64,000 bases of DNA from contig CAZMYL010000001.1 in NCBI GenBank assembly GCA_964570505.1, forward strand, positions 143,501-207,500, given 5' to 3'. Positions 19,254 to 63,652 of the stretch are shown here, one piece after another. Position 1 is the first letter of the stretch, and each line of letters starts with the position of its first letter. The notes below the pieces were generated by a model. That model saw only the letters and a program-made list of their open reading frames with translations, made no database searches and was not told the origin of the DNA. The position numbers and the translations under genes are program-made. The DNA is from an uncultured Pseudomonadota bacterium (GTDB lineage Bacteria > Babelota > Babeliae > Babelales > CAIQNR01).

Positions 19254-20579
19254 ATGAAAAAGTTGAATAAAGTTGTCATTATTGGAAGAACAAATGTAGG
19301 AAAATCAACTCTTTTTAATCGTTTGTCTACTTCAGTTAAAAGTATGACACTTGATTATATGGGTGTTACTCGAGATTTTATTTCTGACACTGTTAGTTGG
19401 AAAGATAGATCATTTGAGTTAATTGACACAGGTGGTATTGATTTTAAAAAAGGTCTCGATTTTTTAACAGAAGCGATTCGTGAAAGAGCTGTTCAAGTAC
19501 TTGAGTCATCAGATGTTGTTCTTTTTGTTGTAGATGGAGCAGCTGGAGTTACGTCAGAAGACCAAACATTAGCACGTTTTGTACATAAGCTTAAAAAGCC
19601 TACATTGTTACTTATTAATAAAGGCGATAGTCATGCTGCTCAAGAAAATGAAAGTGAATTTATAGCACTTGGCTTTGGTTATCAAAATACTATTTTAATT
19701 TCTGCACAGCATGGTACTGGTATAGCTGATATTTGTGAAGGTATTTTAGCAAATCTTCCAGCGCAGGAAGATATTCCAGATGAAGAGCCAGGATATAAAG
19801 TAGTTTTGCTTGGAAAGCCAAATGTTGGAAAATCATCATTAATGAATGCTCTTTTGCAAAGAGATAGATCATTAGTTTCTGATATTGCAGGCACAACTCG
19901 AGAAGCAATTCGTGACCGTATGCATTTTTATAAAGAAACGATTGAAGTTGTTGATACTGCTGGAATTCGCCGTCAAAGATCAGTTGATGAAACTATTGAA
20001 GAAATGATGGTAAGAACATCATTTGGTGCAGTAAGAGATGCAGATATTGTTTTATTACTTATTGATGCTCATGAAGCACAACTTGCTCATCAAGAACTTA
20101 AACTAGCATCATATGTTTTTGAACAAGGTAAAGCGCTCATTATTATTCGTAATAAACATGACTTGGTTGATGAAGATATTCAAGAGCAGTGGAAATACGA
20201 TACCGAAGAATATGATCATTTACTACGAAAAATAGAGGTACTTACTGTTTCATGCACAACTGGTCATAATATTGGAAAAATTTTACCGCTTGTTAAAGAA
20301 GTTTGGGAGCGTTATACACATAATTTTTCAGCTGCTTATTTAACAATGATTTTTAAAGATGGTTTAGAGCGAACGCCGCTTTATCATAATAAGCATAGGC
20401 TTAAGATGTTCTCTGCAAAACAAGTTGGTATTAAACCTCTTTTAATCCGTTTAAATGTTAATGAGCCAGATTGGTTTGAAAGTAGCCAGCAAAACTTTTT
20501 TGAAAATCTTTTGCGTAAAGATTATAACCTTAAGAGTGTTCCGGTTAAGTTTAATTTACGAAGAATGTTTTTTGATTAA
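19254..20579 (+). CDS. der: ribosome-associated GTPase Der (EngA)
   Basis: Two tandem GTPase domains (GRTNVGKSTLFN...DTGG...NKGD and GKPNVGKSSLMN...DTAG...NKHD) plus a KH-like C-terminal domain. Confidence 0.9.
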   Translation: MKKLNKVVIIGRTNVGKSTLFNRLSTSVKSMTLDYMGVTRDFISDTVSWKDRSFELIDTGGIDFKKGLDFLTEAIRERAVQVLESSDVVLFVVDGAAGVTSEDQTLARFVHKLKKPTLLLINKGDSHAAQENESEFIALGFGYQNTILISAQHGTGIADICEGILANLPAQEDIPDEEPGYKVVLLGKPNVGKSSLMNALLQRDRSLVSDIAGTTREAIRDRMHFYKETIEVVDTAGIRRQRSVDETIEEMMVRTSFGAVRDADIVLLLIDAHEAQLAHQELKLASYVFEQGKALIIIRNKHDLVDEDIQEQWKYDTEEYDHLLRKIEVLTVSCTTGHNIGKILPLVKEVWERYTHNFSAAYLTMIFKDGLERTPLYHNKHRLKMFSAKQVGIKPLLIRLNVNEPDWFESSQQNFFENLLRKDYNLKSVPVKFNLRRMFFD

Positions 20580-20612
20580 TTGTTGAATAATACTAGTATA
20601 TATTTGATATTT

Positions 20613-20656
20613 AGATAATAAAAAAGCCTCTGTTATAAGAGGCTTTTTTATTATCT
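20613..20656. terminator. bidirectional hairpin terminator between der and the convergent 144-aa gene
   Basis: AGATAATAAAAAAGCCTCT GTTATA AGAGGCTTTTTTATTATCT: a 19-bp perfect stem with A/T runs on both sides. Confidence 0.75.
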
Positions 20657-20664
20657 AAGATAGT

Positions 20665-21099
20665 TTAGTTGGTTTTAGAAAGTTCATTTTTTTGTTTTTG
20701 GATTTCTTTATCAGGCATTAATTGAGCATTAAAAGCTGCAATTGCTTCTTTAGAAACACTTGTTAATATTTCTTTAGTCTTTCCTATTCCATAATCTCTG
20801 TCATATGAGCGTGGATGAATTTTTGTCATATCTTTCAAGTCAATATGCATAGCTCGGCCATTGATATAATCGCAGTGGCCATTCCAAGATTTTTCTGTAA
20901 ATATTTGTTTTGCTTCTTGTGCAGTTGAAATATTTGGTTGTGCATGCAAAAATCCCAAACCCATAGGTTGAGCATAATTATATAAAAGCATAAAGGCATG
21001 ATATTGCGACATACCTTCTGGCGCGCTAAAACTTTGAGATTCTGATCCATATGTTGAACTTACTATGCAAGTTAAGAGTAATAAGTTTAATTTTTTCAT
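20665..21099 (-). CDS. hypothetical exported protein, 144 aa
   Basis: Signal-like MKKLNLLLLTCIVSSTYG. It lies inside the segment bracketed by the duplicated der 3' ends and is preceded by upstream module copy B. No family recognised. Confidence 0.6.
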   Translation of the reverse strand: MKKLNLLLLTCIVSSTYGSESQSFSAPEGMSQYHAFMLLYNYAQPMGLGFLHAQPNISTAQEAKQIFTEKSWNGHCDYINGRAMHIDLKDMTKIHPRSYDRDYGIGKTKEILTSVSKEAIAAFNAQLMPDKEIQKQKNELSKTN

Positions 21100-21146
21100 A
21101 CATTGCCTTATTATATTGAGAGATTAAAATATATTTCTAAGTAAAA

Positions 21147-21188
21147 GTATATCAGGGGGTAAAGTCAAATTCTTTCTTTATTAGATTT
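21147..21188 (-). promoter_or_regulatory. conserved upstream module, copy B (TTGACT, C5 tract, TGATATACT)
   Basis: The minus strand reads AAATCTAATAAAGAAAGAATTTGACTTTACCCCCTGATATAC(T). TGATATACT matches the extended -10 form seen at other genes here. Nearly identical to copy C apart from tract length. It lies about 50-90 nt upstream of the 21099 start. Confidence 0.5.
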
Positions 21189-21203
21189 ATGCAACCGTGC
21201 TTG

Positions 21204-21240
21204 AAGTCTTTTAAATATCTTCATAATATTTAAAAGACTT
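21204..21240. repeat. palindromic repeat element, copy H1
   Basis: AAGTCTTTTAAATAT CTTCATA ATATTTAAAAGACTT: a perfect 15-bp stem with a 7-nt loop. Related copies are at 22132-22167 and 23491-23548. Confidence 0.7.
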
Positions 21241-21304
21241 ATTTTTATTTAAATGAGCAGAAAACCCCAAGTTTTTTTAAAACTGGGGATGAATGGTCAT
21301 CCTT

Positions 21305-21416
21305 ATTGGTTTGAAAGTAGTCAGCAAAACTTTTTTGAAAATCTTTTGCGTAAAGATTATAACCTTAAGAGCGTTCCGGTTAAGTTTAATTTACGTAGAA
21401 TGTTCTTTGATTAATT
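21305..21416 (+). pseudogene. orphan duplicate of the der 3' end (last 36 codons plus stop)
   Basis: The 112 bp align without gaps to der 20470-20581 (offset 835) with 4 mismatches. All four are synonymous in the der frame. No der body lies upstream. An ATG at 21289 creates a 41-codon relic ORF. Confidence 0.8.
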
Positions 21417-21441
21417 TTTAATATTTATATACTACTTACAA

Positions 21442-21469
21442 ATAAAGGCCTCTTTAAAGAGGCCTTTAT
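21442..21469. terminator. bidirectional hairpin terminator
   Basis: ATAAAGGCCTCTTT/AAAGAGGCCTTTAT is a perfect palindrome lying between the der relic and the stop of the convergent 175-aa gene. Confidence 0.65.
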
Positions 21470-21471
21470 AG

Positions 21472-21999
21472 TTATTTATTAATAATTGAAGATACAACAG
21501 AAATAAAATCTGGTTGGTAATATGGTAATTGAGGTCTTTCTAAACAATCTAATGTCAAATCTGTATGTATTGATAATGTTTCAATTTCTTCTGCTTTTAT
21601 TTTTATATATTCTAATTGTGCATTTTCTTGATTATTGCCATCTTGAAGATGTGTTGCACGTATTTCTATATCTATATTATCATATAAAAATAAAATTTGT
21701 TTTCTATGAAATTTAAAATAACGATAATATGTTGAAAATGATCCAGAAGATATATATTCTTTCATTTTTTTAAAATTATATAAAGTATAATAAATGTGAT
21801 GGGCCATAGAATCTCTTTTTTTATCATCACATAGATTTGCTAAATTAAGATAAAGAGCTGTATTTTTCTGTATTAACTCAATATCTTGTGTGTGCCACGA
21901 GATTAAAAAATTCCGTTTGTCTTTCTCAGATACATGCATTTGAGGAGAGCATTGATTTTGTGAAAAAATAAGAAATAATAAAAATGATTTTTTTGTCAT
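21472..21999 (-). CDS. hypothetical exported protein, 175 aa
   Basis: ORF with a hydrophobic N-terminus MTKKSFLLFLIFSQNQCS. No family recognised. Confidence 0.5.
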   Translation of the reverse strand: MTKKSFLLFLIFSQNQCSPQMHVSEKDKRNFLISWHTQDIELIQKNTALYLNLANLCDDKKRDSMAHHIYYTLYNFKKMKEYISSGSFSTYYRYFKFHRKQILFLYDNIDIEIRATHLQDGNNQENAQLEYIKIKAEEIETLSIHTDLTLDCLERPQLPYYQPDFISVVSSIINK

Positions 22000-22131
22000 A
22001 TTGTTCTTTTTTGAAATATATTTTGATATAAATCTTTGCGCTATAATAAGTGATATTTTATAGTATAATTTCTACAATGCAATTTTAAATAATTGAAATA
22101 ATGATTTGTGGCAGAATGTTGTAATGTTTTT

Positions 22132-22167
22132 TATGAGCAAAAAATAAGTCTTTTAAATATGATGAAG
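22132..22167. repeat. left direct repeat / half-copy (H2) of the palindromic element
   Basis: TATGAGCAAAAAATAAGTCTTTTAAATAT (22132-22160) recurs at 23491-23520 with one extra A. The following GATGAAG is the reverse complement of the H1/H3 loop CTTCAT(A/C). Confidence 0.65.
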
Positions 22168-22283
22168 TCAAATGTTGCCTAGTCATGAATTTTACGACAT
22201 TTTTTGTTTTATGATTAAGTTCAATAGAAGATAATTTATGTACATAATGATGTGATATATAAAAGTTAAAAAGAATTTTTAAC

Positions 22284-22313
22284 TTGACATAGTTCTCATT
22301 ATCCTTGTATTTT
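22284..22313 (+). promoter_or_regulatory. sigma-70-type promoter candidate for the ATPase gene, with operator-like repeats
   Basis: TTGACA (22284-22289), an 18-nt spacer, then TATTTT. A 10-bp-arm palindrome AAGTTAAAAA-GAA-TTTTTAACTT (22263-22285) overlaps the -35. TTCGAATTT occurs twice (22312 and 22325) just downstream of the -10. Confidence 0.45.
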
Positions 22314-22355
22314 CGAATTTAGAGTTCGAATTTTCAATGATAATAAGGATTATAA

Positions 22356-23495
22356 ATGAATAGAGAAAAATATTTAGCTTTAATTGAGCGACAATTTAAT
22401 GTGCATCCTGTATGTGCTATTCTTGGTCCTCGCCAGGTGGGAAAAACAACACTTGCTCACCTTTATAGTCAGCAGAAGTATAAAAATGATGCTATTTTTT
22501 TTGATTTAGAAAATCCAGAAGACTTGGCTCGATTAAGTAATCCTATGCTTGCACTCAATGGGGTGTCTCAATATTTGATTGTTATTGATGAAATTCAGTT
22601 AAGGCCAGATTTATTTCCTATACTTCGTGTGCTTGTTGATGATAAAGGTTTTAATCATAAGTTGCTTATTTTGGGTAGCGCATCTCGTGATCTTATCAGT
22701 CAATCGTCAGAAACGCTTGCAGGTAGAATTGGTTATTTAGAGTTAACGCCATTTATGCTTTTTGAAGTTCATGACATGAGTAGGCTTCTCCTTCGTGGGG
22801 GCTTTCCACGTTCTTATTTAGCATTATCTGATCAAGATAGTTATGAGTGGCGTAAAAGTTACGTTATGACATTTTTAGAGCGAGATATTCCAAATTTTGG
22901 TTTTTCTATTCCTGCGCAACAGCTGCGTCGTTTTTGGATGATGCTTGTGCATTATCATGGTCAAGTTTTAAATTATAGTGAGCTTGGGCGGTCTATGATG
23001 CTTTCTGACAATACTATCAAAAAATACATAGAAATTTTAGCAGGGACTTTTATGATTCGTTTGCTCTATCCATGGTTTGAAAACATTGGAAAGCGACAGG
23101 TTAAAGCGCCCAAAATATATATTCGTGATACGGGGATTTTTAATTTTTTAGTGGGTATGTCTACTTATGATGCAATGATGTCTCATCCTAAACTGGGAGC
23201 GTTATGGGAGGGGTTTGCGCTTGAAGAAATAATCTCAGTTCTTGGTTGTGCACAGGAAGAAGTATTTTTTTGGGCAACTCATGCGGATGCAGAACTAGAT
23301 TTATTTGTAGTAAAAGATGGAAAACGTTTAGGTTTTGAATGTAAATATTCTGATGCCCCAAAAACTACAAAATCAATGCATAGTGCAGTTGAAACATTAC
23401 ATTTAGATCATTTATATGTTATTTATCCCGGTAAGCAGCAGTATGGTTTGACTGAAAAAATTACGGTTTTTGGACTTGAAGTCTTTAAAATATGA
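22356..23495 (+). CDS. AAA+ ATPase of the AAA_14/DUF4143 type
   Basis: 379 aa with Walker A GPRQVGKTTLA and Walker B LIVIDEIQ. The C-terminal half has the DUF4143-like pattern (…LERDI…, …LYPWFENIGKRQVKAPKIYIRDTG…), typical of the widespread stand-alone ATP-binding protein family. Confidence 0.75.
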   Translation: MNREKYLALIERQFNVHPVCAILGPRQVGKTTLAHLYSQQKYKNDAIFFDLENPEDLARLSNPMLALNGVSQYLIVIDEIQLRPDLFPILRVLVDDKGFNHKLLILGSASRDLISQSSETLAGRIGYLELTPFMLFEVHDMSRLLLRGGFPRSYLALSDQDSYEWRKSYVMTFLERDIPNFGFSIPAQQLRRFWMMLVHYHGQVLNYSELGRSMMLSDNTIKKYIEILAGTFMIRLLYPWFENIGKRQVKAPKIYIRDTGIFNFLVGMSTYDAMMSHPKLGALWEGFALEEIISVLGCAQEEVFFWATHADAELDLFVVKDGKRLGFECKYSDAPKTTKSMHSAVETLHLDHLYVIYPGKQQYGLTEKITVFGLEVFKI

Positions 23496-23548
23496 GCAAA
23501 AAAATAAGTCTTTTAAATATCTTCATAATAGTTAAAAGACTTATTTTT
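23491..23548. repeat. right direct repeat plus full palindromic element (H3); probably also the terminator of the ATPase gene
   Basis: TATGAGCAAAAAAATAAGTCTTTTAAATAT contains the ATPase TGA stop. AAAAATAAGTCTTTTAA ...15 nt... TTAAAAGACTTATTTTT forms a 17-bp perfect stem (23500-23548), followed by T-rich sequence. Confidence 0.7.
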
Positions 23549-23569
23549 ATAATTTTTGTTTATGGTCTA

Positions 23570-24367
23570 TTATTTTATAGCGGAAACGTCTTTTGAATAT
23601 TTTCGTACTGCTTTAAGAACATCAGCAACTGTTGAGGCATAAAGACAACTATGTGTTTTGGGTTGCGCTGCATCTGTATAACGTTTTTCAAAAGGAGTTA
23701 AATGTTCAGTAGACGGACATTTAGATTTTTTTAAATTTTCTACCATCTTTTGCATATCATTAAGAACAGAATCTTGAGTAGATGGAATATCTGCGCGTGT
23801 TAAAGATTCAGCTATTTTATTAGCATTTCCTAAGATTCTTAAAGCAGGATTTTTACAAAAAATGCCATTGACTTGAAAATCTGATTTATTACCAATAGTT
23901 TGTTCTTTTTCTGAAAGGGTAGAAAAAATATATGCGTAGTATCTGAGTAGAGCATTCATTTCGAGATTAAAATTTTCACGTGCTATCTCATATGAATCAT
24001 TTTTATGATATCGTGATGAGTTTAAGAAACTATGAAAACTACCTATTGTTTCTTGAAAATTACCAAGAATTGTACCCATAGGATTTTTATGAAAATTATT
24101 TAAATTAAGCTCAACATCTACATGATACATAATTTCATCAAAAAGAAGAGCATATTCACCTTGTTGAAATTTAGGGATATTTTGATCGATGAGGTGACCA
24201 TATTTTTTCATTAAGTTTTGTAGGTGTTTATTGCAATCAATAGGCTGTCCTGTTAAAGGATGTACTGGCACTCCTAAATTGGTATGGGTAGCTTGTTTAT
24301 TTGATTCGGATGCATCGATGCCGTTGATGCAAGATAATAAAATAGTAAGTATTAATAATTTTTTCAT
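23570..24367 (-). CDS. hypothetical exported protein, 265 aa
   Basis: Signal-like MKKLLILTILLSCINGIDA. Preceded by upstream module copy C. No family recognised. Confidence 0.6.
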   Translation of the reverse strand: MKKLLILTILLSCINGIDASESNKQATHTNLGVPVHPLTGQPIDCNKHLQNLMKKYGHLIDQNIPKFQQGEYALLFDEIMYHVDVELNLNNFHKNPMGTILGNFQETIGSFHSFLNSSRYHKNDSYEIARENFNLEMNALLRYYAYIFSTLSEKEQTIGNKSDFQVNGIFCKNPALRILGNANKIAESLTRADIPSTQDSVLNDMQKMVENLKKSKCPSTEHLTPFEKRYTDAAQPKTHSCLYASTVADVLKAVRKYSKDVSAIK

Positions 24368-24477
24368 TTTGAGCCTTTAGTTAAAAATTTAAACCTATTA
24401 ATTCAATTGAGAATGAGTTTTTCTTAAAAAATCACTATAATTGAATTAATAAAAAGCAATATATTACAAATAGAAGT

Positions 24478-24522
24478 GTATATCGGGGGGGGGTAAAGTC
24501 AAATTCTTTTTTTATTAGATTT
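24478..24522 (-). promoter_or_regulatory. conserved upstream module, copy C (TTGACT, C9 tract, GATATACA)
   Basis: The minus strand reads AAATCTAATAAAAAAAGAATTTGACTTTACCCCCCCCCGATATAC. The G9 run at 24485-24493 is the longest G/C homopolymer in the window. It lies about 110-155 nt upstream of the 24367 start. Confidence 0.45.
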
Positions 24523-24627
24523 TTGTAATAGGCTTATAAAAATAAAAATAAGGTTTTTACAAAAGACAATTTTTTAATTTTATATACTCTGAGTTTTTAT
24601 TCGATATATAACTTTTTAAGGATAATA

Positions 24628-25911
24628 ATGAATATATTTTTTAGTTTTTTGCCTATTATTTCATTTATTGGGACGTATGTAGGTTCAGGAATTTATTTTT
24701 CATATTTAGGAGTAGATAAAGCTTTTTATCAAGTTTCTCCTATTGCTGCAATTATGCCAGCTCTTTTTTGTGCATGGATATTTTTTAAAGGTAATACTTC
24801 TGACCGTATGAAAGCCTTTATTGATGGAGTGCGTCATCCTGATATTATTACTATGTGTGTTTTATTTTTTTTAGCAGGTTCATTTGGATCGGTAACTTCT
24901 TCCATTGGAAGTGTTGATGCATTGGTAAATATGGCTATTAGTACAATACCTTCTCAGTTTTTGATTATTGGTATTTTTATAGCATGTGCTCTTATTTCTA
25001 CAGCAATTGGTACGTCTATGGGAACTATTGCAACATGTGCGCCTCTTGCTGCTGGTCTTGCTCATAGTGGTGTATTTTCTATGACACTTGCAATGGCCAC
25101 AGTAGTTGGAGGATCTATGTTTGGAGATAGTCTTTCTATGATTTCAGATACTACTATTGCAGCGGTGCTTTCTCAAGGCGCTGATATGAAGAAAAAATTT
25201 AAAATAAATGCTATTGTTGCGTTGATTGCAGCCTTTATTACGATAGGTGTTCTTTTAATGCTTTCTCATGATGGTGTTATTGTAGAACATCATTCAGCAT
25301 CTTTATTACTAGTTTTCCCTTATATTTTTCTTATAGTGCTTGCATTTTTAGGTATTAATCCATTTGTTGTTCTTTTTTTAGCATTAGTAGTTGCATGGGT
25401 TGTTGGTTATATTGATCATTCTTATTCATTATTAGAATTTGGCAAAGATATTGATGCAGGGTGTAAAGGTATGCATGAAATTGCATTGCTTTCTCTTTTA
25501 ATTGGGGGGCTTTCTAGCCTTTCAAGTAGTGCTATTAACTTTATAAGTTTATTTATTGAACGTTGTATTGGATCTTTGAAAAGTAAAAGAGCGGGTCAGT
25601 ACACAATAGGATTTCTTGTTGGTTTGTGTGATCTTTTTATGGCCAATAATACAATAGCAATTATTTTTAGTGGGAAAATAGCAAAAGATATTGCTCAGCG
25701 ACAAGCTATTCCAAGTCATTATACTGCAGCTTGGTTAGATATTTTTTCGTGTGTAACTCAAGGACTTATTCCTTATGGGGCGCAAGTTCTTCTTGCAAGT
25801 TCAATTGGAGGAGTTTCTCCTTTGAGTATTATTTCAGAAATATATTATTGTTATGCACTTTTTGTTGTTGCTGTTATATATATTGGTACTCAGAAAAAAT
25901 TATTAATTTGA
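24628..25911 (+). CDS. NhaC-family Na+/H+ antiporter-like transporter
   Basis: 427 aa polytopic membrane protein. The motif GGSMFGDSLSMISDTTIAAV resembles the NhaC-family GDxxSPISDTT signature. Confidence 0.55.
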   Translation: MNIFFSFLPIISFIGTYVGSGIYFSYLGVDKAFYQVSPIAAIMPALFCAWIFFKGNTSDRMKAFIDGVRHPDIITMCVLFFLAGSFGSVTSSIGSVDALVNMAISTIPSQFLIIGIFIACALISTAIGTSMGTIATCAPLAAGLAHSGVFSMTLAMATVVGGSMFGDSLSMISDTTIAAVLSQGADMKKKFKINAIVALIAAFITIGVLLMLSHDGVIVEHHSASLLLVFPYIFLIVLAFLGINPFVVLFLALVVAWVVGYIDHSYSLLEFGKDIDAGCKGMHEIALLSLLIGGLSSLSSSAINFISLFIERCIGSLKSKRAGQYTIGFLVGLCDLFMANNTIAIIFSGKIAKDIAQRQAIPSHYTAAWLDIFSCVTQGLIPYGAQVLLASSIGGVSPLSIISEIYYCYALFVVAVIYIGTQKKLLI

Positions 25912-45369: not shown

Positions 45370-45394
45370 TATGTATAGAAAGATGGGGTTATCT

Positions 45395-46114
45395 ATGAAA
45401 AAATTTTTATTGTTATTATGCGTTTCGCTTTGCGCAACCCGTGTTTACTGTGCTCCCACTGATGATAAATATAGTTGGCTTACAAGGCTTGGTATGTTTT
45501 TAAGAAATAGTCCTCAGCAAATTTTGACACAGTTAAAACAAGAAAATTTGTATACTGATTTATGGCTAGAAGAATTACCTGCTCCAGAAGGTATCGTATA
45601 TAGAGTATATCGTATTATTAAGGTAAGTAATGAATTGTCGATAGCTTTTCATGTAGGAAATATATTTATTGGCGATGATGGTATTAGTGTTCGTACTGAG
45701 ACTTTTGGGGGACAAGTATTAGATCATGCTCAGCAAGCCGAAGTAGATTGTGAAACAATTATAAGGTGTATTGCATGGAATCGTCCTCCGCAGCAATTTA
45801 TTGAATTTTTGAGGAAAGTTTTTTCTAAAGAATTAGATAGTAAAACAATGACAGAGATTCAAAAGCAATTGTATAATATAAAAAACCCTGAGGAGAGCAA
45901 AGGATTTGTTTTTACGCAAAACAAAAGGTGTAACTCAATTATTGATGAAGAATTAGCTCAAGCTGCTCAATGTGGGCAACGGATGATGGTTAGAGTCGCT
46001 GCAAAGGCTGCAGCTCTTTATGGATTGTATTCTTTAAGAAATGAAATTGCTACAGGTGTTAAAAATGGTACTTCATCTCTTGTGGCTGCAGTTGCAAGTG
46101 GACTAGGTAAGTAA
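45395..46114 (+). CDS. secreted/tail-anchored paralogue 1 of a three-gene tandem family
   Basis: MKKFLLLLCVSLCATRVYCA signal peptide. The C-terminus ...AALYGLYSLRNEIATGVKNGTSSLVAAVASGLGK is shared with the next two genes, and the middle is divergent. The track start is 45371. Confidence 0.7.
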   Translation: MKKFLLLLCVSLCATRVYCAPTDDKYSWLTRLGMFLRNSPQQILTQLKQENLYTDLWLEELPAPEGIVYRVYRIIKVSNELSIAFHVGNIFIGDDGISVRTETFGGQVLDHAQQAEVDCETIIRCIAWNRPPQQFIEFLRKVFSKELDSKTMTEIQKQLYNIKNPEESKGFVFTQNKRCNSIIDEELAQAAQCGQRMMVRVAAKAAALYGLYSLRNEIATGVKNGTSSLVAAVASGLGK

Positions 46115-46139
46115 TGATATATGGCTTAAGAGGTTATCT

Positions 46140-46880
46140 GTGAAGAAATTTTTATTGTTAGTATGTATTTTTGTTTGTGCAACTCGTGTTTACTGTGCTG
46201 CCACTGATGATAAATATGGTTGGTTTACAAGGCTTGGTATGTACTTAACAAAGAGTCCTCAGCGAATTGCGAAAGAGTTAAGAAAACAACGTTTGTATAC
46301 TCATTTATTGATAAAAAAATCTTCCGAAAATTCTGAATATCCAAGAAAATCTAATGGTTATCATTTATATCATTTTTTTGAAAATAGTAATGTTGGTATA
46401 TCGAAAAGAATGATAGTTGAACAATATGGTACTGTTGATGTTGAAGAATCTTCTGGGTTCTATATCGTTAACCCTAAAGAATTTCAAGAAAATTCTAGCT
46501 TAATAATATCTACTATTGCGCTGTATTATCCTCAGAAATTTATTAGTTTTTTGAGAGAAGTTTTTTCTGAAAAAGATTCTACTTTAGACGACTTCTCTAA
46601 AAGCAACAGTTGGGCTGAAATCTGTCGGAAAAAGAAAATAGATACGCTTGATTATAGTGCACAGCAACAGATTATTAGTGAAAATAATAAAAAGTGTAAC
46701 TCAATTATTGATAAAGAATTGTCTCGAGCTACTCAATGTGGAGTTGCTGCAACGGTTGGAGTTGCTGCAGCGGGTGCAGCACTTTATGGATTGTATTTTT
46801 TAAGAAATGAAATTGCTACAGGTGTTAAAAATGGTACTTCATCTCTTGTGGCTGCAGTTGCAAGTGGACTAGGTAAGTAA
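46140..46880 (+). CDS. secreted/tail-anchored paralogue 2
   Basis: GTG start 6 nt after SD AAGAGG. MKKFLLLVCIFVCATRVYCA signal peptide and a Gly/Ala-rich hydrophobic C-terminal segment. Identical to paralogue 3. Confidence 0.7.
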   Translation: MKKFLLLVCIFVCATRVYCAATDDKYGWFTRLGMYLTKSPQRIAKELRKQRLYTHLLIKKSSENSEYPRKSNGYHLYHFFENSNVGISKRMIVEQYGTVDVEESSGFYIVNPKEFQENSSLIISTIALYYPQKFISFLREVFSEKDSTLDDFSKSNSWAEICRKKKIDTLDYSAQQQIISENNKKCNSIIDKELSRATQCGVAATVGVAAAGAALYGLYFLRNEIATGVKNGTSSLVAAVASGLGK

Positions 46881-46905
46881 TGATATATGGCTTAAGAGGT
46901 TATCT

Positions 46906-47646
46906 GTGAAGAAATTTTTATTGTTAGTATGTATTTTTGTTTGTGCAACTCGTGTTTACTGTGCTGCCACTGATGATAAATATGGTTGGTTTACAAGGCT
47001 TGGTATGTACTTAACAAAGAGTCCTCAGCGAATTGCGAAAGAGTTAAGAAAACAACGTTTGTATACTCATTTATTGATAAAAAAATCTTCCGAAAATTCT
47101 GAATATCCAAGAAAATCTAATGGTTATCATTTATATCATTTTTTTGAAAATAGTAATGTTGGTATATCGAAAAGAATGATAGTTGAACAATATGGTACTG
47201 TTGATGTTGAAGAATCTTCTGGGTTCTATATCGTTAACCCTAAAGAATTTCAAGAAAATTCTAGCTTAATAATATCTACTATTGCGCTGTATTATCCTCA
47301 GAAATTTATTAGTTTTTTGAGAGAAGTTTTTTCTGAAAAAGATTCTACTTTAGACGACTTCTCTAAAAGCAACAGTTGGGCTGAAATCTGTCGGAAAAAG
47401 AAAATAGATACGCTTGATTATAGTGCACAGCAACAGATTATTAGTGAAAATAATAAAAAGTGTAACTCAATTATTGATAAAGAATTGTCTCGAGCTACTC
47501 AATGTGGAGTTGCTGCAACGGTTGGAGTTGCTGCAGCGGGTGCAGCACTTTATGGATTGTATTTTTTAAGAAATGAAATTGCTACAGGTGTTAAAAATGG
47601 TACTTCATCTCTTGTGGCTGCAGTTGCAAGTGGACTAGGTAAGTAA
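46906..47646 (+). CDS. secreted/tail-anchored paralogue 3 (identical copy of paralogue 2)
   Basis: Identical 246-aa translation and, as far as I can read, identical nucleotides at a 766-nt offset. Confidence 0.7.
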   Translation: MKKFLLLVCIFVCATRVYCAATDDKYGWFTRLGMYLTKSPQRIAKELRKQRLYTHLLIKKSSENSEYPRKSNGYHLYHFFENSNVGISKRMIVEQYGTVDVEESSGFYIVNPKEFQENSSLIISTIALYYPQKFISFLREVFSEKDSTLDDFSKSNSWAEICRKKKIDTLDYSAQQQIISENNKKCNSIIDKELSRATQCGVAATVGVAAAGAALYGLYFLRNEIATGVKNGTSSLVAAVASGLGK

Positions 47647-47833
47647 TGATATATGGCTTAAATGCCTTTTTTTGTAAAATATTTTTAAAGTGAGTTTTTT
47701 TGCATTGTGATTTTTGACATTGTAAGAAGCTCGCTTTTTGATTAATTGCCGATTTTTGCCATTTCTATATACTCTTTCTGAGGTTATATACATAAAAAAT
47801 TATTAAGATGTTTGAGTAAGGGTGATAAGGGAT

Positions 47834-58139: not shown

Positions 58140-58220
58140 TGATGAGTATCAAATTGTTGGCACTACAAAAGCCTATTTTAGTGAGAAAGAGATTTTGCAG
58201 TCATTTGTAAAATAATTAAG
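58140..58220 (+). pseudogene. orphan perfect copy of the murE 3' end (last 24 codons, stop and 5 nt)
   Basis: 81/81 identity with 63362-63442 (offset 5222). An in-frame TAG lies upstream at 58120-58122 and there is no start codon, so it is not expressed as murE. Confidence 0.85.
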
Positions 58221-58359: not shown

Positions 58360-59901
58360 ATGTTATTTAAGAAATTTTTTTTATTATTTTCTATTTGTGG
58401 TAATTATAAAGATCCTGTAAAAAGTGAACCTTTAGAATGTTCTGAAAACAGTAAAACTTCTGATTCTCCTTATTTAAGACGTATTCCAAGAGATCCTATT
58501 ACATATTTTCAATTCAAATTTGCAACAGAAAACGAAAAGGCTATAAATTATGAGAGAAGTTTAAAAAAATCAGTCGTTCCTGGCTATGATTTTACTGACT
58601 TATATGTAAAAAAAGAAAAAGAATTTATAGAAAATGATGGTGGTATTTATGCTTCTGCATTTTGTCAATTATTGATAAGCCGATCTGTTTCTGTTACGGG
58701 AAAAAGTCAATTACATAATATAGTAAGCCCAGTAAATGTTTATACATTTAAAAACAGGCCTGATACTCGAGCTTGTGCATATTTTCATACAATATGGTTT
58801 AAGGAATCTAGTTTGAAAAGAACATCTTTGTCTGAAAATTGTTTTACAGCATTGCATGAACTTCATCATATTATACACGGTGATTATAGAAGTAACAAAA
58901 GCATGTATAATCATTTTAATGATAGGTTTTCTACAGAGGAATCATATTCAAAATATATAGAATATAGTGCTGATGTAGGCGCTTTAGAGTATATGGGTTC
59001 AGCTGCAGCTATTAATGAAGTAGCTGAAAAATGTCCTGATGATTATAATTCAAGTAATGGTTATTTAAATAAAAAACAATATATGGAATTTGCTAAAGAA
59101 GCGCGAAAACAAGAAGATCAGTTTAAAGCTAATTTTTCCTATAATGATATGATTTTGCAACAAAAAGAATTTACACAAGATGATTTAAATCAATTTAAAT
59201 TTAACAATACAACTAAAAAAGAGTTGCTCCAAGATCAAGAAGAACATGCAGCGTATATGAAAAACTTGTCTTCTGATAATGATAATAATAATGAATTTCA
59301 AGCAGTTAATGATCGTAAAATGACGATGCTTTTAGCAATCCAAAAAAAATTACATATTGAAATTCAATTATTTGATATTGATGAAGAAAATAATGATCTG
59401 AAAAACAAGCTTTATATAAAATTATTGCATATTCATTCTATGCTAGAAGAGTCGGGATATATTAATCAAAAAGTGTATTCTGATGAATTTTATTATAATG
59501 GTCCTTCTTATATTGATAAAGAAAATAATGATCTGAAAAACAAGCTTTATATAAAATTATTGCATGTTAACTCTATGCTAGAAGAACATGCGTATATTAA
59601 TGCAAGAGTGCATTCGGATCAATTTCAGTATCAATATCCTTCTGATGTTAATGCTGAAGAGCTTAAAAAAAGATCATTTAATGATTTAAAAGGCAACCAA
59701 GATAAAAGTGAGCGATGGTTATTATCTAATTTATTTGCAGCATTGCAATATAATAATTTAGATAAATTAGAAGTTGATCTTAATTGGGTTGATCTAGAAA
59801 TAACAAAAGCTAATTTAGAACGTAATCAAGAAGAAGTTGAAAGACTTAAATGTATTAAAGCAAATTATGAAGAGCAGATTGAGAGTCTAAAAGGTAGTTA
59901 A
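58360..59901 (+). CDS. hypothetical HExxH-motif protein (putative zinc metalloprotease) with a coiled-coil/repeat C-terminal half
   Basis: 513 aa with a hydrophobic N-terminus MLFKKFFLLFSICG. ALHELHHIIHGD contains HExxH. There is a 45-aa internal tandem repeat, and the C-terminus is rich in E/K/N/L heptads. Confidence 0.65.
   Translation: MLFKKFFLLFSICGNYKDPVKSEPLECSENSKTSDSPYLRRIPRDPITYFQFKFATENEKAINYERSLKKSVVPGYDFTDLYVKKEKEFIENDGGIYASAFCQLLISRSVSVTGKSQLHNIVSPVNVYTFKNRPDTRACAYFHTIWFKESSLKRTSLSENCFTALHELHHIIHGDYRSNKSMYNHFNDRFSTEESYSKYIEYSADVGALEYMGSAAAINEVAEKCPDDYNSSNGYLNKKQYMEFAKEARKQEDQFKANFSYNDMILQQKEFTQDDLNQFKFNNTTKKELLQDQEEHAAYMKNLSSDNDNNNEFQAVNDRKMTMLLAIQKKLHIEIQLFDIDEENNDLKNKLYIKLLHIHSMLEESGYINQKVYSDEFYYNGPSYIDKENNDLKNKLYIKLLHVNSMLEEHAYINARVHSDQFQYQYPSDVNAEELKKRSFNDLKGNQDKSERWLLSNLFAALQYNNLDKLEVDLNWVDLEITKANLERNQEEVERLKCIKANYEEQIESLKGS
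59386..59655 (+). repeat. internal tandem repeat, 2 x 135 nt, within the HExxH gene
   Basis: ENNDLKNKLYIKLLH(I/V)(H/N)SMLEE... occurs twice. The first 45 nt of each unit are identical (GAAAATAATGATCTGAAAAACAAGCTTTATATAAAATTATTGCAT). Confidence 0.8.
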
Positions 59902-59905
59902 ATTT

Positions 59906-59982
59906 TGGTGTGCCCAACAGGAATTGAACCTGTGGCCTACAGATTAGGAATCTGTCGCTCTATCCAACTGAGCTATGGGCAC
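59906..59982 (-). tRNA. tRNA-Arg (anticodon CCT), CCA encoded
   Basis: Hand-folded: acceptor GTGCCCA/TGGGCAC, D arm GCTC-AGTTGGATA-GAGC, anticodon stem ACAGA/TCTGT with loop TTCCTAA, T arm ACAGG-TTCAATT-CCTGT, and 3' ACCA. Confidence 0.9.
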
Positions 59983-60053: not shown

Positions 60054-60479
60054 TTAATCTTCATACTCTGTGGTGTTGTTTAAATTGTTTTGAAATTGTA
60101 ATCGCATTAAATATCCTTCTAAGATAAGTGCTGCAGCTTTTGAATGAATTTCTAACTTTTCACCTTTTTTTCCTAAATTTTGGGCTTGCTTACTAGTAAG
60201 CCGTTCGTCATAAAATTCCCATTTTTGATTTGGAAATTGTAATGATAGTTCTTCTTTAAGAAGAACTATTTTTTTTGTTTGTTCGCTTTCAGTTCCTCGA
60301 AGTGTTTGTGGATATCCTACAACAACTATTGAAATTGATTCGTGTAAAAACAATTCTTTTAAAAAATCTTGTAATTGGTTAAGAGGTACAGTTTTAAAAG
60401 GTCTGGCAAGTATTCTTGATGCATCGGTAATTGCGGTTCCTACCCATTGGTCACCAAGATCTAAAGCTATAATTTTCAT
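60054..60479 (-). CDS. ruvX: Holliday-junction-resolvase-like pre-16S rRNA nuclease RuvX (YqgF)
   Basis: MKIIALDLGDQWVGTAITD is the YqgF N-terminal signature. Size is 141 aa. Confidence 0.85.
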   Translation of the reverse strand: MKIIALDLGDQWVGTAITDASRILARPFKTVPLNQLQDFLKELFLHESISIVVVGYPQTLRGTESEQTKKIVLLKEELSLQFPNQKWEFYDERLTSKQAQNLGKKGEKLEIHSKAAALILEGYLMRLQFQNNLNNTTEYED

Positions 60480-62009: not shown

Positions 62010-63437
62010 ATGAAACTATCTCAAAAAATAAGCATGCCTGTTACTTTTCCTGTAGCAGCTCATACAGATAATGTTGGTCAAGGAACAATATTTGTTGCAA
62101 TTTCTGGCCAGCATTATGATGGAATTTTGTATATTCCACAAGCTATAGCAAAGGGTGCTTCTCGTATAATTATTCAACAAAATGCAGTTGTTCCAGAAGA
62201 TATTTTATTATTGCTTACTATGCATGAAATTCCACTTACTCGAGTGGATAATCCTCGCAAGGCATTGGCAGAATTAAGTAATCAAATGGCAGATTATCCT
62301 TCAAAGCAATTGAAAATTATTGGAATTACTGGAACTAAAGGAAAAACAACATCTGTTTATATTTTAGAAGCTCTTTTAAAGAGAATGGGTAAAAAAGTTG
62401 CTCGATTAAGCACTGTTTCTAATGCAATTGATGGTTATGAATTAACTGCTCCGCTTACGACTGCTCAACCAGATTATTTACATCAATTTTTTAGATTATG
62501 TCTTGATCAAAGCATTGAATATGTAGTTATGGAAATTGCAGCTCAAGCTACAACTTTTAATAGAATTGATGATATTCAATTAGACGCTCTTATTTTTACT
62601 AATTTAGAAAGAGAACATGCCGAATTGTATCCTGATATAGAGGATTATTTTCAAGCAAAATATAAAATTATAGATCATGTAAAAAGTGATGGATATGTGA
62701 TTGTTAATGCGGATGATATGTACGGGCAACGCATTTTAAAACAAAATAACTGTGCACGGGCATTTTCTTTTAAAGATGGAAATTCTGTTTATAGTTATGT
62801 TCAATACAGTCAAGAAAAAATAAAAATAATGATTAATGAATATGAATATGTTCTTAATTATAAGGGAATTCCTGGTATTTTTAATGCATATAATTTAGCA
62901 GGGGCTTTTATTGTTTTATTTTATTTAGGTATCTCTTTAGATCAATTGCTAGATGGGATTATTGAGTTTCCAAAAATACCAGGCCGATTAGAAGAGTATG
63001 CATTGCCTAATGGTGCGTGTGCTTATATTGATTATGCTCATACGGCAGGATCATTTAAAAGTTTGTTGTCTGTTGTACGTCAATGGACTGACCATTTGAT
63101 TGTTGTATTTGGTGCAGGTGGTGGTAAAGATTCTATAAAGCGTCCAGAAATGGGAAGAATTGCATCTGAATATAGTGACCTTATTATTCTTACAACTGAT
63201 AATCCTCGACAAGAAGATCCAAAAAAAATAATTGAAGATATTATGGTAGGAATTTTTGAAAAAGATAAAGTATTGGTTGAGCTTGATAGATCTAGAGCTA
63301 TACAAATGGCTTATAATTATTCAAAAAAAAGTTCTATTATTATGCTTCTTGGAAAAGGTCCTGATGAGTATCAAATTGTTGGCACTACAAAAGCCTATTT
63401 TAGTGAGAAAGAGATTTTGCAGTCATTTGTAAAATAA
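62010..63437 (+). CDS. murE: UDP-N-acetylmuramoyl-L-alanyl-D-glutamate--2,6-diaminopimelate ligase
   Basis: Mur ligase P-loop GITGTKGKTT and the DAP-specific DNPR motif in TTDNPRQEDP. 475 aa. Confidence 0.9.
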   Translation: MKLSQKISMPVTFPVAAHTDNVGQGTIFVAISGQHYDGILYIPQAIAKGASRIIIQQNAVVPEDILLLLTMHEIPLTRVDNPRKALAELSNQMADYPSKQLKIIGITGTKGKTTSVYILEALLKRMGKKVARLSTVSNAIDGYELTAPLTTAQPDYLHQFFRLCLDQSIEYVVMEIAAQATTFNRIDDIQLDALIFTNLEREHAELYPDIEDYFQAKYKIIDHVKSDGYVIVNADDMYGQRILKQNNCARAFSFKDGNSVYSYVQYSQEKIKIMINEYEYVLNYKGIPGIFNAYNLAGAFIVLFYLGISLDQLLDGIIEFPKIPGRLEEYALPNGACAYIDYAHTAGSFKSLLSVVRQWTDHLIVVFGAGGGKDSIKRPEMGRIASEYSDLIILTTDNPRQEDPKKIIEDIMVGIFEKDKVLVELDRSRAIQMAYNYSKKSSIIMLLGKGPDEYQIVGTTKAYFSEKEILQSFVK

Positions 63438-63512
63438 TTAAGAGCTTATCTAAAAACTAAATGTTCTTGAGAATAATGATCTGGAAGAACATTTGAACAA
63501 ATAATTGTATAT

Positions 63513-63575
63513 GACTTAAATGTATTAAAGCGAATTATCCAAAACAAATTAAAAATTTAAAGGGTAATGAATTTT
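63513..63575 (+). pseudogene. decayed relic of the 3' end of an HExxH-gene paralogue
   Basis: Collinear, at the same 3670-nt offset as the tRNAs, with 59843-59905. The first 26 nt match 25/26, and overall 49/63. Most differences are G to A in the relic. Confidence 0.6.
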
Positions 63576-63652
63576 TGGTGTGCCCGATAGGAATTGAACC
63601 TATGACCTACGGATTAGAAGTCCGTCGCTCTATCCAACTGAGCTACGGGCAC
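63576..63652 (-). tRNA. tRNA-Arg (anticodon TCT), CCA encoded
   Basis: Hand-folded: acceptor GTGCCCG/CGGGCAC, anticodon stem ACGGA/TCCGT with loop CTTCTAA, T arm ATAGG-TTCAATT-CCTAT. It is a paralogue of the tRNA at 59906-59982, with compensatory stem changes. Confidence 0.9.

Follow-up and report, generated by a model that had tools for sequence, protein, structure and literature searches.

A duplicated, well-preserved der gene tail at a hypervariable locus of a Babeliales bacterium, and its reading as a possible cassette-insertion scar

Integrase-mediated islands and integrative and conjugative elements (ICEs) insert into the 3′ end of a gene, bring a replacement end with them, and leave an attL/attR duplication. 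The minimal mobile elements of Neisseria occupy hot spots between conserved genes and are exchanged by homologous recombination; natural transformation is established in Neisseria and is not known from Babeliales. Campbell-type insertion-duplication, in which circular DNA integrates through a short stretch of chromosomal homology, is mainly a laboratory outcome obtained with suicide plasmids. C-terminal displacement, with orphan 3′ ends left behind, is described in rhs, CdiA, and type VI secretion system (T6SS) effector-immunity loci and attributed to homology-facilitated illegitimate recombination (PMC5361080, citing Jackson 2009, PMC2935791), a mechanism also put forward to explain stepwise displacement at Vibrio T6SS loci and in rhs genes (PMC5361080). 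Here, we compare with these systems a 64-kb stretch of DNA (the window; contig CAZMYL010000001.1) from a Babeliales (Dependentiae) bacterium with 30% G+C, a member of an intracellular lineage, in which the 3′ end of the GTPase gene der is present twice, once in the working gene and once, downstream, as a displaced relic.

A window-wide repeat search recovered a gap-free direct repeat of 115 nt (20470-20584 versus 21305-21419; 96% identity, spacing 835). The features concerned are as follows.

19254-20579, plus strand: der (engA), the functional gene for a ribosome-biogenesis GTPase of 441 aa (open reading frame (ORF) and Pfam match)
20470-20584, plus strand: repeat copy 1, comprising the final 36 der codons, the stop codon, and 5 nt
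21305-21419, plus strand: repeat copy 2, the relic or displaced der tail, with no der body 5′ of it, within the ORF 21253-21414
20486: mismatch C/T (AGC/AGT)
20537: mismatch T/C (AGT/AGC)
20561: mismatch A/T (CGA/CGT)
20570: mismatch T/C (TTT/TTC)
20611-20658, strandless: T1, a two-way terminator hairpin common to der and the convergent 144-aa gene (perfect 21-bp arms; −28.9 kcal/mol, z −8.8)
21442-21469, strandless: T2, a diverged T1 homologue that also terminates the minus-strand 175-aa gene (−18 kcal/mol)

The initial annotation, made from the letters of the window, had reported a 112-nt repeat at an offset of 835 with four synonymous mismatches, and both the repeat search and a base-by-base comparison bear this out: copy 1 and the relic differ at 4 of 112 coding bases, each a synonymous third-position difference when read in the der frame, and a fifth mismatch (20582/21417) lies beyond the der stop codon. 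The left edge of the homology is abrupt at 20470/21305, with unrelated sequences 5′ of it, and the right edge fades 5 nt past the stop. Pfam places two MMR_HSR1 GTPase domains and a C-terminal KH_dom-like domain on the der product; the relic matches positions 49-81 of the 81 in the KH_dom-like model, that is, its last 33 positions. The relic-containing ORF spans 53 codons (21253-21414), and the 41-codon ORF previously described from the ATG at 21289 is likewise found in the ORF list. Sensitive blastn and tblastn searches found no further der-tail copies in the window, in the related sequences L001-L006, or in L011, L013-L015, L019, and L020. Serial integration would predict one more relic, at the opposite end of the variable island, and none is present.

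The duplicated unit extends beyond the coding sequence. Since T1 and T2 share a stem (GCCTCT..AGAGGC) that the 64-kb window contains at only these two sites (0 expected) and that L001 also has behind der, the unit comprises the der tail plus its terminator, ~190 nt in all and larger than first reported. The stretches 3′ of the two tail copies also give a significant local alignment, with 42 of 53 columns matching. The original description of a separate terminator after each copy, with more diverged flanks, stands, T1 and T2 being diverged homologues. Conservation within the unit is uneven, with differences at 4 of 112 coding positions versus 31 of 77 downstream columns (Fisher 1e-10). T1 is conserved 3′ of der in L001 and is closer to the terminator there (score 71) than to T2 (score 31), whereas the tails differ from each other at 4 positions, each from L001 at 6, and from more distant relatives at 15-26; because the terminator distances disagree with the tail distances, tail and terminator have different histories.

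The preservation of the relic is anomalous. L001 represents a different species, with ~84% nucleotide identity to the window; between the two, 34% of four-fold degenerate der sites differ, and the der codon differences amount to 119 synonymous and 7 non-synonymous. A neutral 112-nt relic as old as the split between the window and L001 would be expected to carry ~25 changes, whereas at most 3 map to the relic (P 3e-8), and if the tail had been duplicated in place and the relic had then drifted, the probability that all four differences are synonymous would be 0.006-0.025. Outgroup polarization assigns 2 changes to the working copy and 1-2 to the relic branch. Simple in-place decay of the relic is rejected both by the synonymous pattern and by the age, and the relic is too intact for an old neutral pseudogene. 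The proposal that both ends evolved under purifying selection in different lineages agrees with the synonymous-only pattern, although just 1-2 of the 4 changes lie on the relic branch that it concerns.

Among related genomes, the gene order dnaX-der-[variable]-antiporter/dsbD is conserved, and the Der protein is 98% identical to that of L001 and 94% to that of L002. The spacer that separates der from its next conserved neighbor measures 115 bp in L002, 937 bp in L001, and 4048 bp in the window, whose island carries four genes against one gene plus a remnant in L001 and none in L002. The sequences found directly after der in the relatives are listed here.

L001: a T1-type terminator, 130 nt of the 144-aa gene, a degenerate T2, and an orthologue of the 175-aa gene
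L002: 115 bp to the antiporter gene, with the entire 20585-24627 absent
L011 and L012: an 81-aa ORF
L013-L020: a 173-aa gene
L019: as in L013, with the der 3′ end altered

L001 carries a deletion equivalent to ~20836-21442 and is without the 379-aa and 265-aa genes of the window. No der relic was found in the related der-carrying loci that were searched, L001-L006 and six of L011-L020, so the ancient fixed duplication that had been named as a refuting outcome was not seen in any of these relatives. A metagenome scan with Der returned distant relatives only (≤70% identity), and a divergence scan along der for a recombination breakpoint gave no clear step. The spacer behind der is hypervariable and appears to be a site that has repeatedly gained and lost small accessory genes in this Babeliales clade. 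We also observed a further instability of the der 3′ end in L019 (7290-7314), where the C-terminus is changed (..VPVKFMINF, then stop) and ~21 nt are missing relative to L013.

Variation at this spot reaches down to the strain level. Independent contigs came from Logan assemblies (k=31) of low-coverage samples (2 of 6 window proteins on record), namely L008 and L010 from SRR32119641 and L009 from SRR16481186. A strain 99.6-99.9% identical to the window differs structurally here, by a 67-nt indel and a truncated 175-aa gene (the relic region is unconfirmed in that strain): the 67-nt segment 21183-21249, which contains the palindrome H1 and is flanked by TTTATT direct repeats, is absent from the 99.9%-identical L008, and in L010 (equivalent to 21596-22665) a shortened 175-aa gene encodes only 139 aa and follows 69 nt found neither in the window nor in L001-L006. 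L008 ends at 21273, the last 31-mer specific to the 67-nt deletion allele, and because this is exactly where that allele rejoins shared sequence, both indel alleles seem to be present in SRR32119641. As so closely related a strain differs structurally, the der 3′ spot is still undergoing rearrangement.

We therefore posit, with moderate confidence, that a gene cassette was inserted at the end of der through der-tail homology, leaving the scar seen at this locus, and that the relic was until recently a working tail elsewhere. The parts of the proposed cassette and its surroundings are the following.

20665-21099, minus strand: the 144-aa gene, an ORF with a signal-peptide-like N-terminus, the cargo between the repeats
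21140-21194, minus strand: putative promoter module (TTGACT ... G5 tract) 5′ of the 144-aa gene
21204-21240, strandless: H1, a palindrome and dispersed repeat with 15-nt arms and a 7-nt loop (−15.1 kcal/mol)
21244-21304, minus strand: hairpin module with hairpins at 21266-21289 and 21284-21305 (−10 and −9.9 kcal/mol), which stops exactly at the relic junction
21472-21999, minus strand: uncharacterized 175-aa gene with its stop codon at 21472 and a 72% identical orthologue in L001

This agrees with the inventory originally drawn up for the space between the copies (144-aa gene, promoter module, H1, hairpin), with the promoter function of the module remaining putative. As to how the recombination took place, which tail was displaced, and when, we infer the following course. 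The incoming DNA would have consisted of a der tail, T1, and the 144-aa gene with its promoter and hairpin modules, and would have joined through der-tail homology, either by single-crossover (Campbell-type) integration of a circularized fragment or, equally possibly, by homology-anchored illegitimate recombination of a linear fragment. The der reading frame would have stayed complete, the second tail would have been shifted 835 bp downstream as a dead fragment, T2 and the 175-aa gene moving with it, and no dedicated integrase would have been involved. The relic itself would have served as the working der tail of a closely related strain until a recent inter-strain recombination, or would have been refreshed recently; as a recent working tail in a related strain, it would account for the synonymous-only pattern.

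Several points weigh against this reading. L001 already has T1, the 144-aa remnant, and a degenerate T2, which makes the cassette either old or twice acquired; a single old insertion is the simplest account, and another process must then keep the relic intact. If the cassette is old and the relic undecayed, recent import or gene conversion must be added to the integration first proposed for this locus. The tail distances of 4, 6, and 6 form a star and no resolved tree, the contrast of 4 with 6 being statistically not significant, and there are but four informative sites, of which 1-2 fall on the relic branch. A comparison with relatives had been suggested as a search for empty sites, and relatives with nothing inserted (L002) or with other content (L011, L013) do exist, L002 and L011 both lacking the island as a whole; a precise empty site or donor-type arrangement, der-T2-175, was found in none of the collections searched. 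Finally, a second displaced tail in the window suggests that gene conversion may operate generally in this genome.

That second tail belongs to a Mur ligase gene (murE, 62010-63437), whose last 25 codons, stop codon, and 5 nt (63362-63442) are copied at 58140-58220 with 81 of 81 positions identical. The copy, which has no start codon, sits between purA and a 513-aa gene without a Pfam match. The tail of the 513-aa gene (59843-59905) in turn has a decayed copy 3′ of the Mur ligase gene (63513-63575; 14 of 63 bases differ), and each 513-aa tail copy is followed by a tRNA-Arg (59906-59982 and 63576-63652, with anticodons cct and tct), the two being closely similar by eye. The arrangement fits a ~5.2-kb segmental duplication that may have been resolved by reciprocal deletions.

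The main rival, possible but in our judgment doubtful, is a duplication at der that predates the split between the window and L001 and in which the relic has been overwritten repeatedly by intragenomic gene conversion, each conversion stopping at the stop codon because the unconstrained sequence downstream had drifted below the homology threshold. Such a history would explain directly why L001 retains T1, a 144-aa remnant, and a degenerate T2, and why the relic is so much better preserved than its apparent age would allow. The finding that T1 is nearer to the L001 terminator than to T2, yet the tails are 4 apart as against 6 to L001, is the classic pattern of concerted evolution, although it leans on a 4-versus-6 contrast that is not significant. 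The identical runs of 50 and 23 nt in the two copies could prime recombination, but direct repeats that recombine would lose the 144-aa gene between them as well. The murE-tail relic, fully identical beside a duplicated neighbor that has diverged at 14 of 63 bases, speaks for conversion as well. What tells the other way is the character of the differences: changes arising after conversion should be mostly non-synonymous in the relic, and all four are synonymous (P 0.006-0.025). A lost integrase, a strain chimera, and a functional micro-ORF are each less likely than gene conversion.

The first of these would make the locus the remnant of a site-specific integrative element, with the repeats as attL and attR and a recombinase that was lost later or acts from elsewhere, and we regard it as unlikely. 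To weigh it, the rest of the island and its right flank are needed.

22000-24627, strandless: remaining variable island, which holds the 379-aa and 265-aa genes and is missing in L001 and L002
22356-23495, plus strand: 379-aa AAA_14/DUF4143 ATPase gene
23570-24367, minus strand: gene for a 265-aa signal-peptide-like protein
24628-25911, plus strand: conserved right flank, a Na+/H+-antiporter-family gene (427 aa), which directly follows der in L002

Direct repeats at a gene 3′ end with the reading frame kept, relatives in which the island is missing, and a hairpin module that stops exactly at the junction and recurs in another context in L011 are what such an element would leave, and the cassette may have entered L001 independently. 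Yet the repeats enclose a single 144-aa gene, 0.8 kb of the ~4-kb variable region (20585-24627), so that they do not delimit the segment that is present or absent among relatives, and no genome examined offers a second instance at der beyond the decayed remnant in L001. None of the four island proteins matches a recombinase, integrase, or transposase in Pfam, PHROGs, NCBIfam, or PADLOC; the flanks are conserved core genes, and no tRNA, tmRNA, or Rfam element was detected at the locus. This absence of a recombinase had been noted before and holds for the island proteins, to which the search was confined within the 64-kb window; their sole matches are AAA_14/DUF4143, for which the 379-aa ATPase corresponds to the PADLOC phage-defense candidate PDC-S01 (E 7e-73), and a weak DUF713. 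Of the original reading as an integrative-element footprint, then, the insertion footprint at the end of der survives, and the site-specific element finds no sign in a recombinase, a tRNA or tmRNA, or the extent of the repeats (0.8 of 4 kb).

Less likely again is a cross-strain assembly chimera, in which the relic and the der-144 segment would come from co-occurring strains joined through the shared 61-nt hairpin module, making the spacing artefactual. No independent contig was found with both copies, so the source contig is the basis for the 835 spacing and for comparing the copies within one genome. L008 stops at 21273 and L009 begins at 21275, the first 31-mer to contain base 21305, contig ends that fit co-occurring variants. 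Neither contig breaks at the 50-nt stretch common to both tails, where two copies of similar depth would force a break in a k=31 graph. However, L009 (2345 of 2345 positions identical) includes the relic with its variant bases at all four sites and, at the left junction, 30 nt more, and by reproducing 21304|21305 it demonstrates that a displaced der tail exists behind non-der sequence regardless of assembly; copy 1 is identical in L008, and the mismatch pattern thus recurs in independent assemblies, as resequencing had been proposed to check. In the L011 homologue the 21266-21289 hairpin is unbroken, although L008 carries one half of it and L009 the other. The source contig has a length of 229.5 kb, and at the low coverage of the Logan samples a missing branch is unsurprising. 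An exact-protein lookup returned no record of the window Der, the 53-aa relic ORF, the 513-aa protein, or PurA. Least probable of all is a functional relic, either a 41-53-aa micro-protein from the KH-like tail of Der or an RNA or DNA element under purifying selection: the intact ORF with two ATG starts, the synonymous-only differences without indels, and conservation that stops at the stop codon would suit it, but a Shine-Dalgarno-like sequence is lacking at any usable distance, the ATG at 21289 lies within the 21284-21305 hairpin stem, the last 37 residues of a KH-like domain would probably not fold on their own, none of the relatives searched has the relic, and the analogous murE relic lacks a start codon.

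We turn to the cargo. The 144-aa protein has no match in Pfam, PHROG, NCBIfam, or PADLOC, and a word-index search matched it only to itself; its apparent orphan status was overturned by an exhaustive search, which recovered 437 distant clusters in a representative library. It is a member of a widespread, uncharacterized small-protein family outside Pfam. An AlphaFold2 (AF2) model reaches a pLDDT of 90 and finds no fold match in the PDB, its structural matches being uncharacterized phage and mimivirus proteins only. The closest homologue (P0131, 49% identity) lies on a contig of 586 bp, too short for gene context.

The sequence modules beside this gene recur elsewhere. The promoter-like module, over 21155-21194, is found again 5′ of the 265-aa gene (24489-24528, or 24485-24528; 40 nt, 93%), and a promoter-like site on the minus strand of the relic counts as no evidence, since the promoter scan gave no enrichment over shuffled sequence. 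We observed that the G tract of the module has 5 residues in one copy and 9 in the other, apparently between putative −35 and −10 hexamers, and that both genes behind it (144 aa and 265 aa) encode signal-peptide-like proteins. H1, with arms AAGTCTTTTAAATAT and ATATTTAAAAGACTT around 7 nt, occurs in the window at 21204-21240 and 23506-23542 and as a half copy at 22146-22160, all inside the island, and again 13 nt 3′ of the gene of the closest 144-aa homologue on another contig (L021 549-586), which suggests a dispersed repeat of the repetitive extragenic palindromic (REP) type. A homologue of the hairpin module stands at the start of L011 (1-54), 5′ of a different gene, where stem positions are changed on both arms with pairing kept (by eye). 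L008, L009, L011, and L012 all terminate inside the hairpin module, and L021 inside the H1 palindrome. Elsewhere in the window, a tandem array (45371-47819) comprises three ~766-bp units with 246-247-aa genes, two of them 98% identical over 300 nt, and ruvX was noticed at 60054-60479.

If the insertion reading holds, the displaced-tail scar would mark a gene-exchange hot spot after der in an uncultured, obligately intracellular lineage, and the junction at der would offer a dated, testable recombination event for the question of how accessory, probably host-directed, genes are gained in Babeliales, about which little is known. If the intact relics of der and murE reflect gene conversion or inter-strain exchange, recombination would be active in genomes usually held to be isolated and decaying; otherwise, the der duplication would be a routine insertion scar whose sole non-trivial point is the preservation of displaced essential-gene tails. 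More speculatively, and with little credence on our part, small Babeliales cassettes may move without a recombinase of their own, an essential-gene tail (der, perhaps murE) serving as homing arm, portable hairpin modules (H1, 21244-21304) as bounds, and the displaced tails being kept as landing pads, in the manner of an integron-like site built on housekeeping-gene homology.

Set against the described systems, the der locus resembles 3′-end islands and ICEs in its direct repeats over the target 3′ end, the kept frame, and the existence of relatives without the island, but it has no recombinase in the island, encloses one small gene, has repeats that do not bound the variable region, and lacks a second instance. 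With the minimal mobile elements of Neisseria it shares conserved genes on either side (der on the left, the antiporter gene and dsbD on the right), cassettes that differ from genome to genome, and the absence of mobility genes, whereas those elements leave no duplicated flank. Campbell-type integration gives the same product geometry, with direct repeats flanking the rest of the circle and ends that are sharp where homology stops, although no natural 835-bp circle has been observed for the der locus. In rhs, CdiA, and T6SS loci, the displaced ends encode diverse toxins and immunity proteins, whereas at der the 36 residues encoded by the two tails are identical and belong to a housekeeping GTPase, and the cargo sits after the stop codon on the opposite strand. 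Like those loci, where repeated events build arrays, the der locus has a conserved gene body that could act as the anchor (94-98% Der protein identity across L001 and L002) and a new module that would supply the working 3′ end without an integrase, and it retains the old 3′ end and its downstream genes behind an abrupt non-homologous junction, at 21305, that is reproduced in L009.

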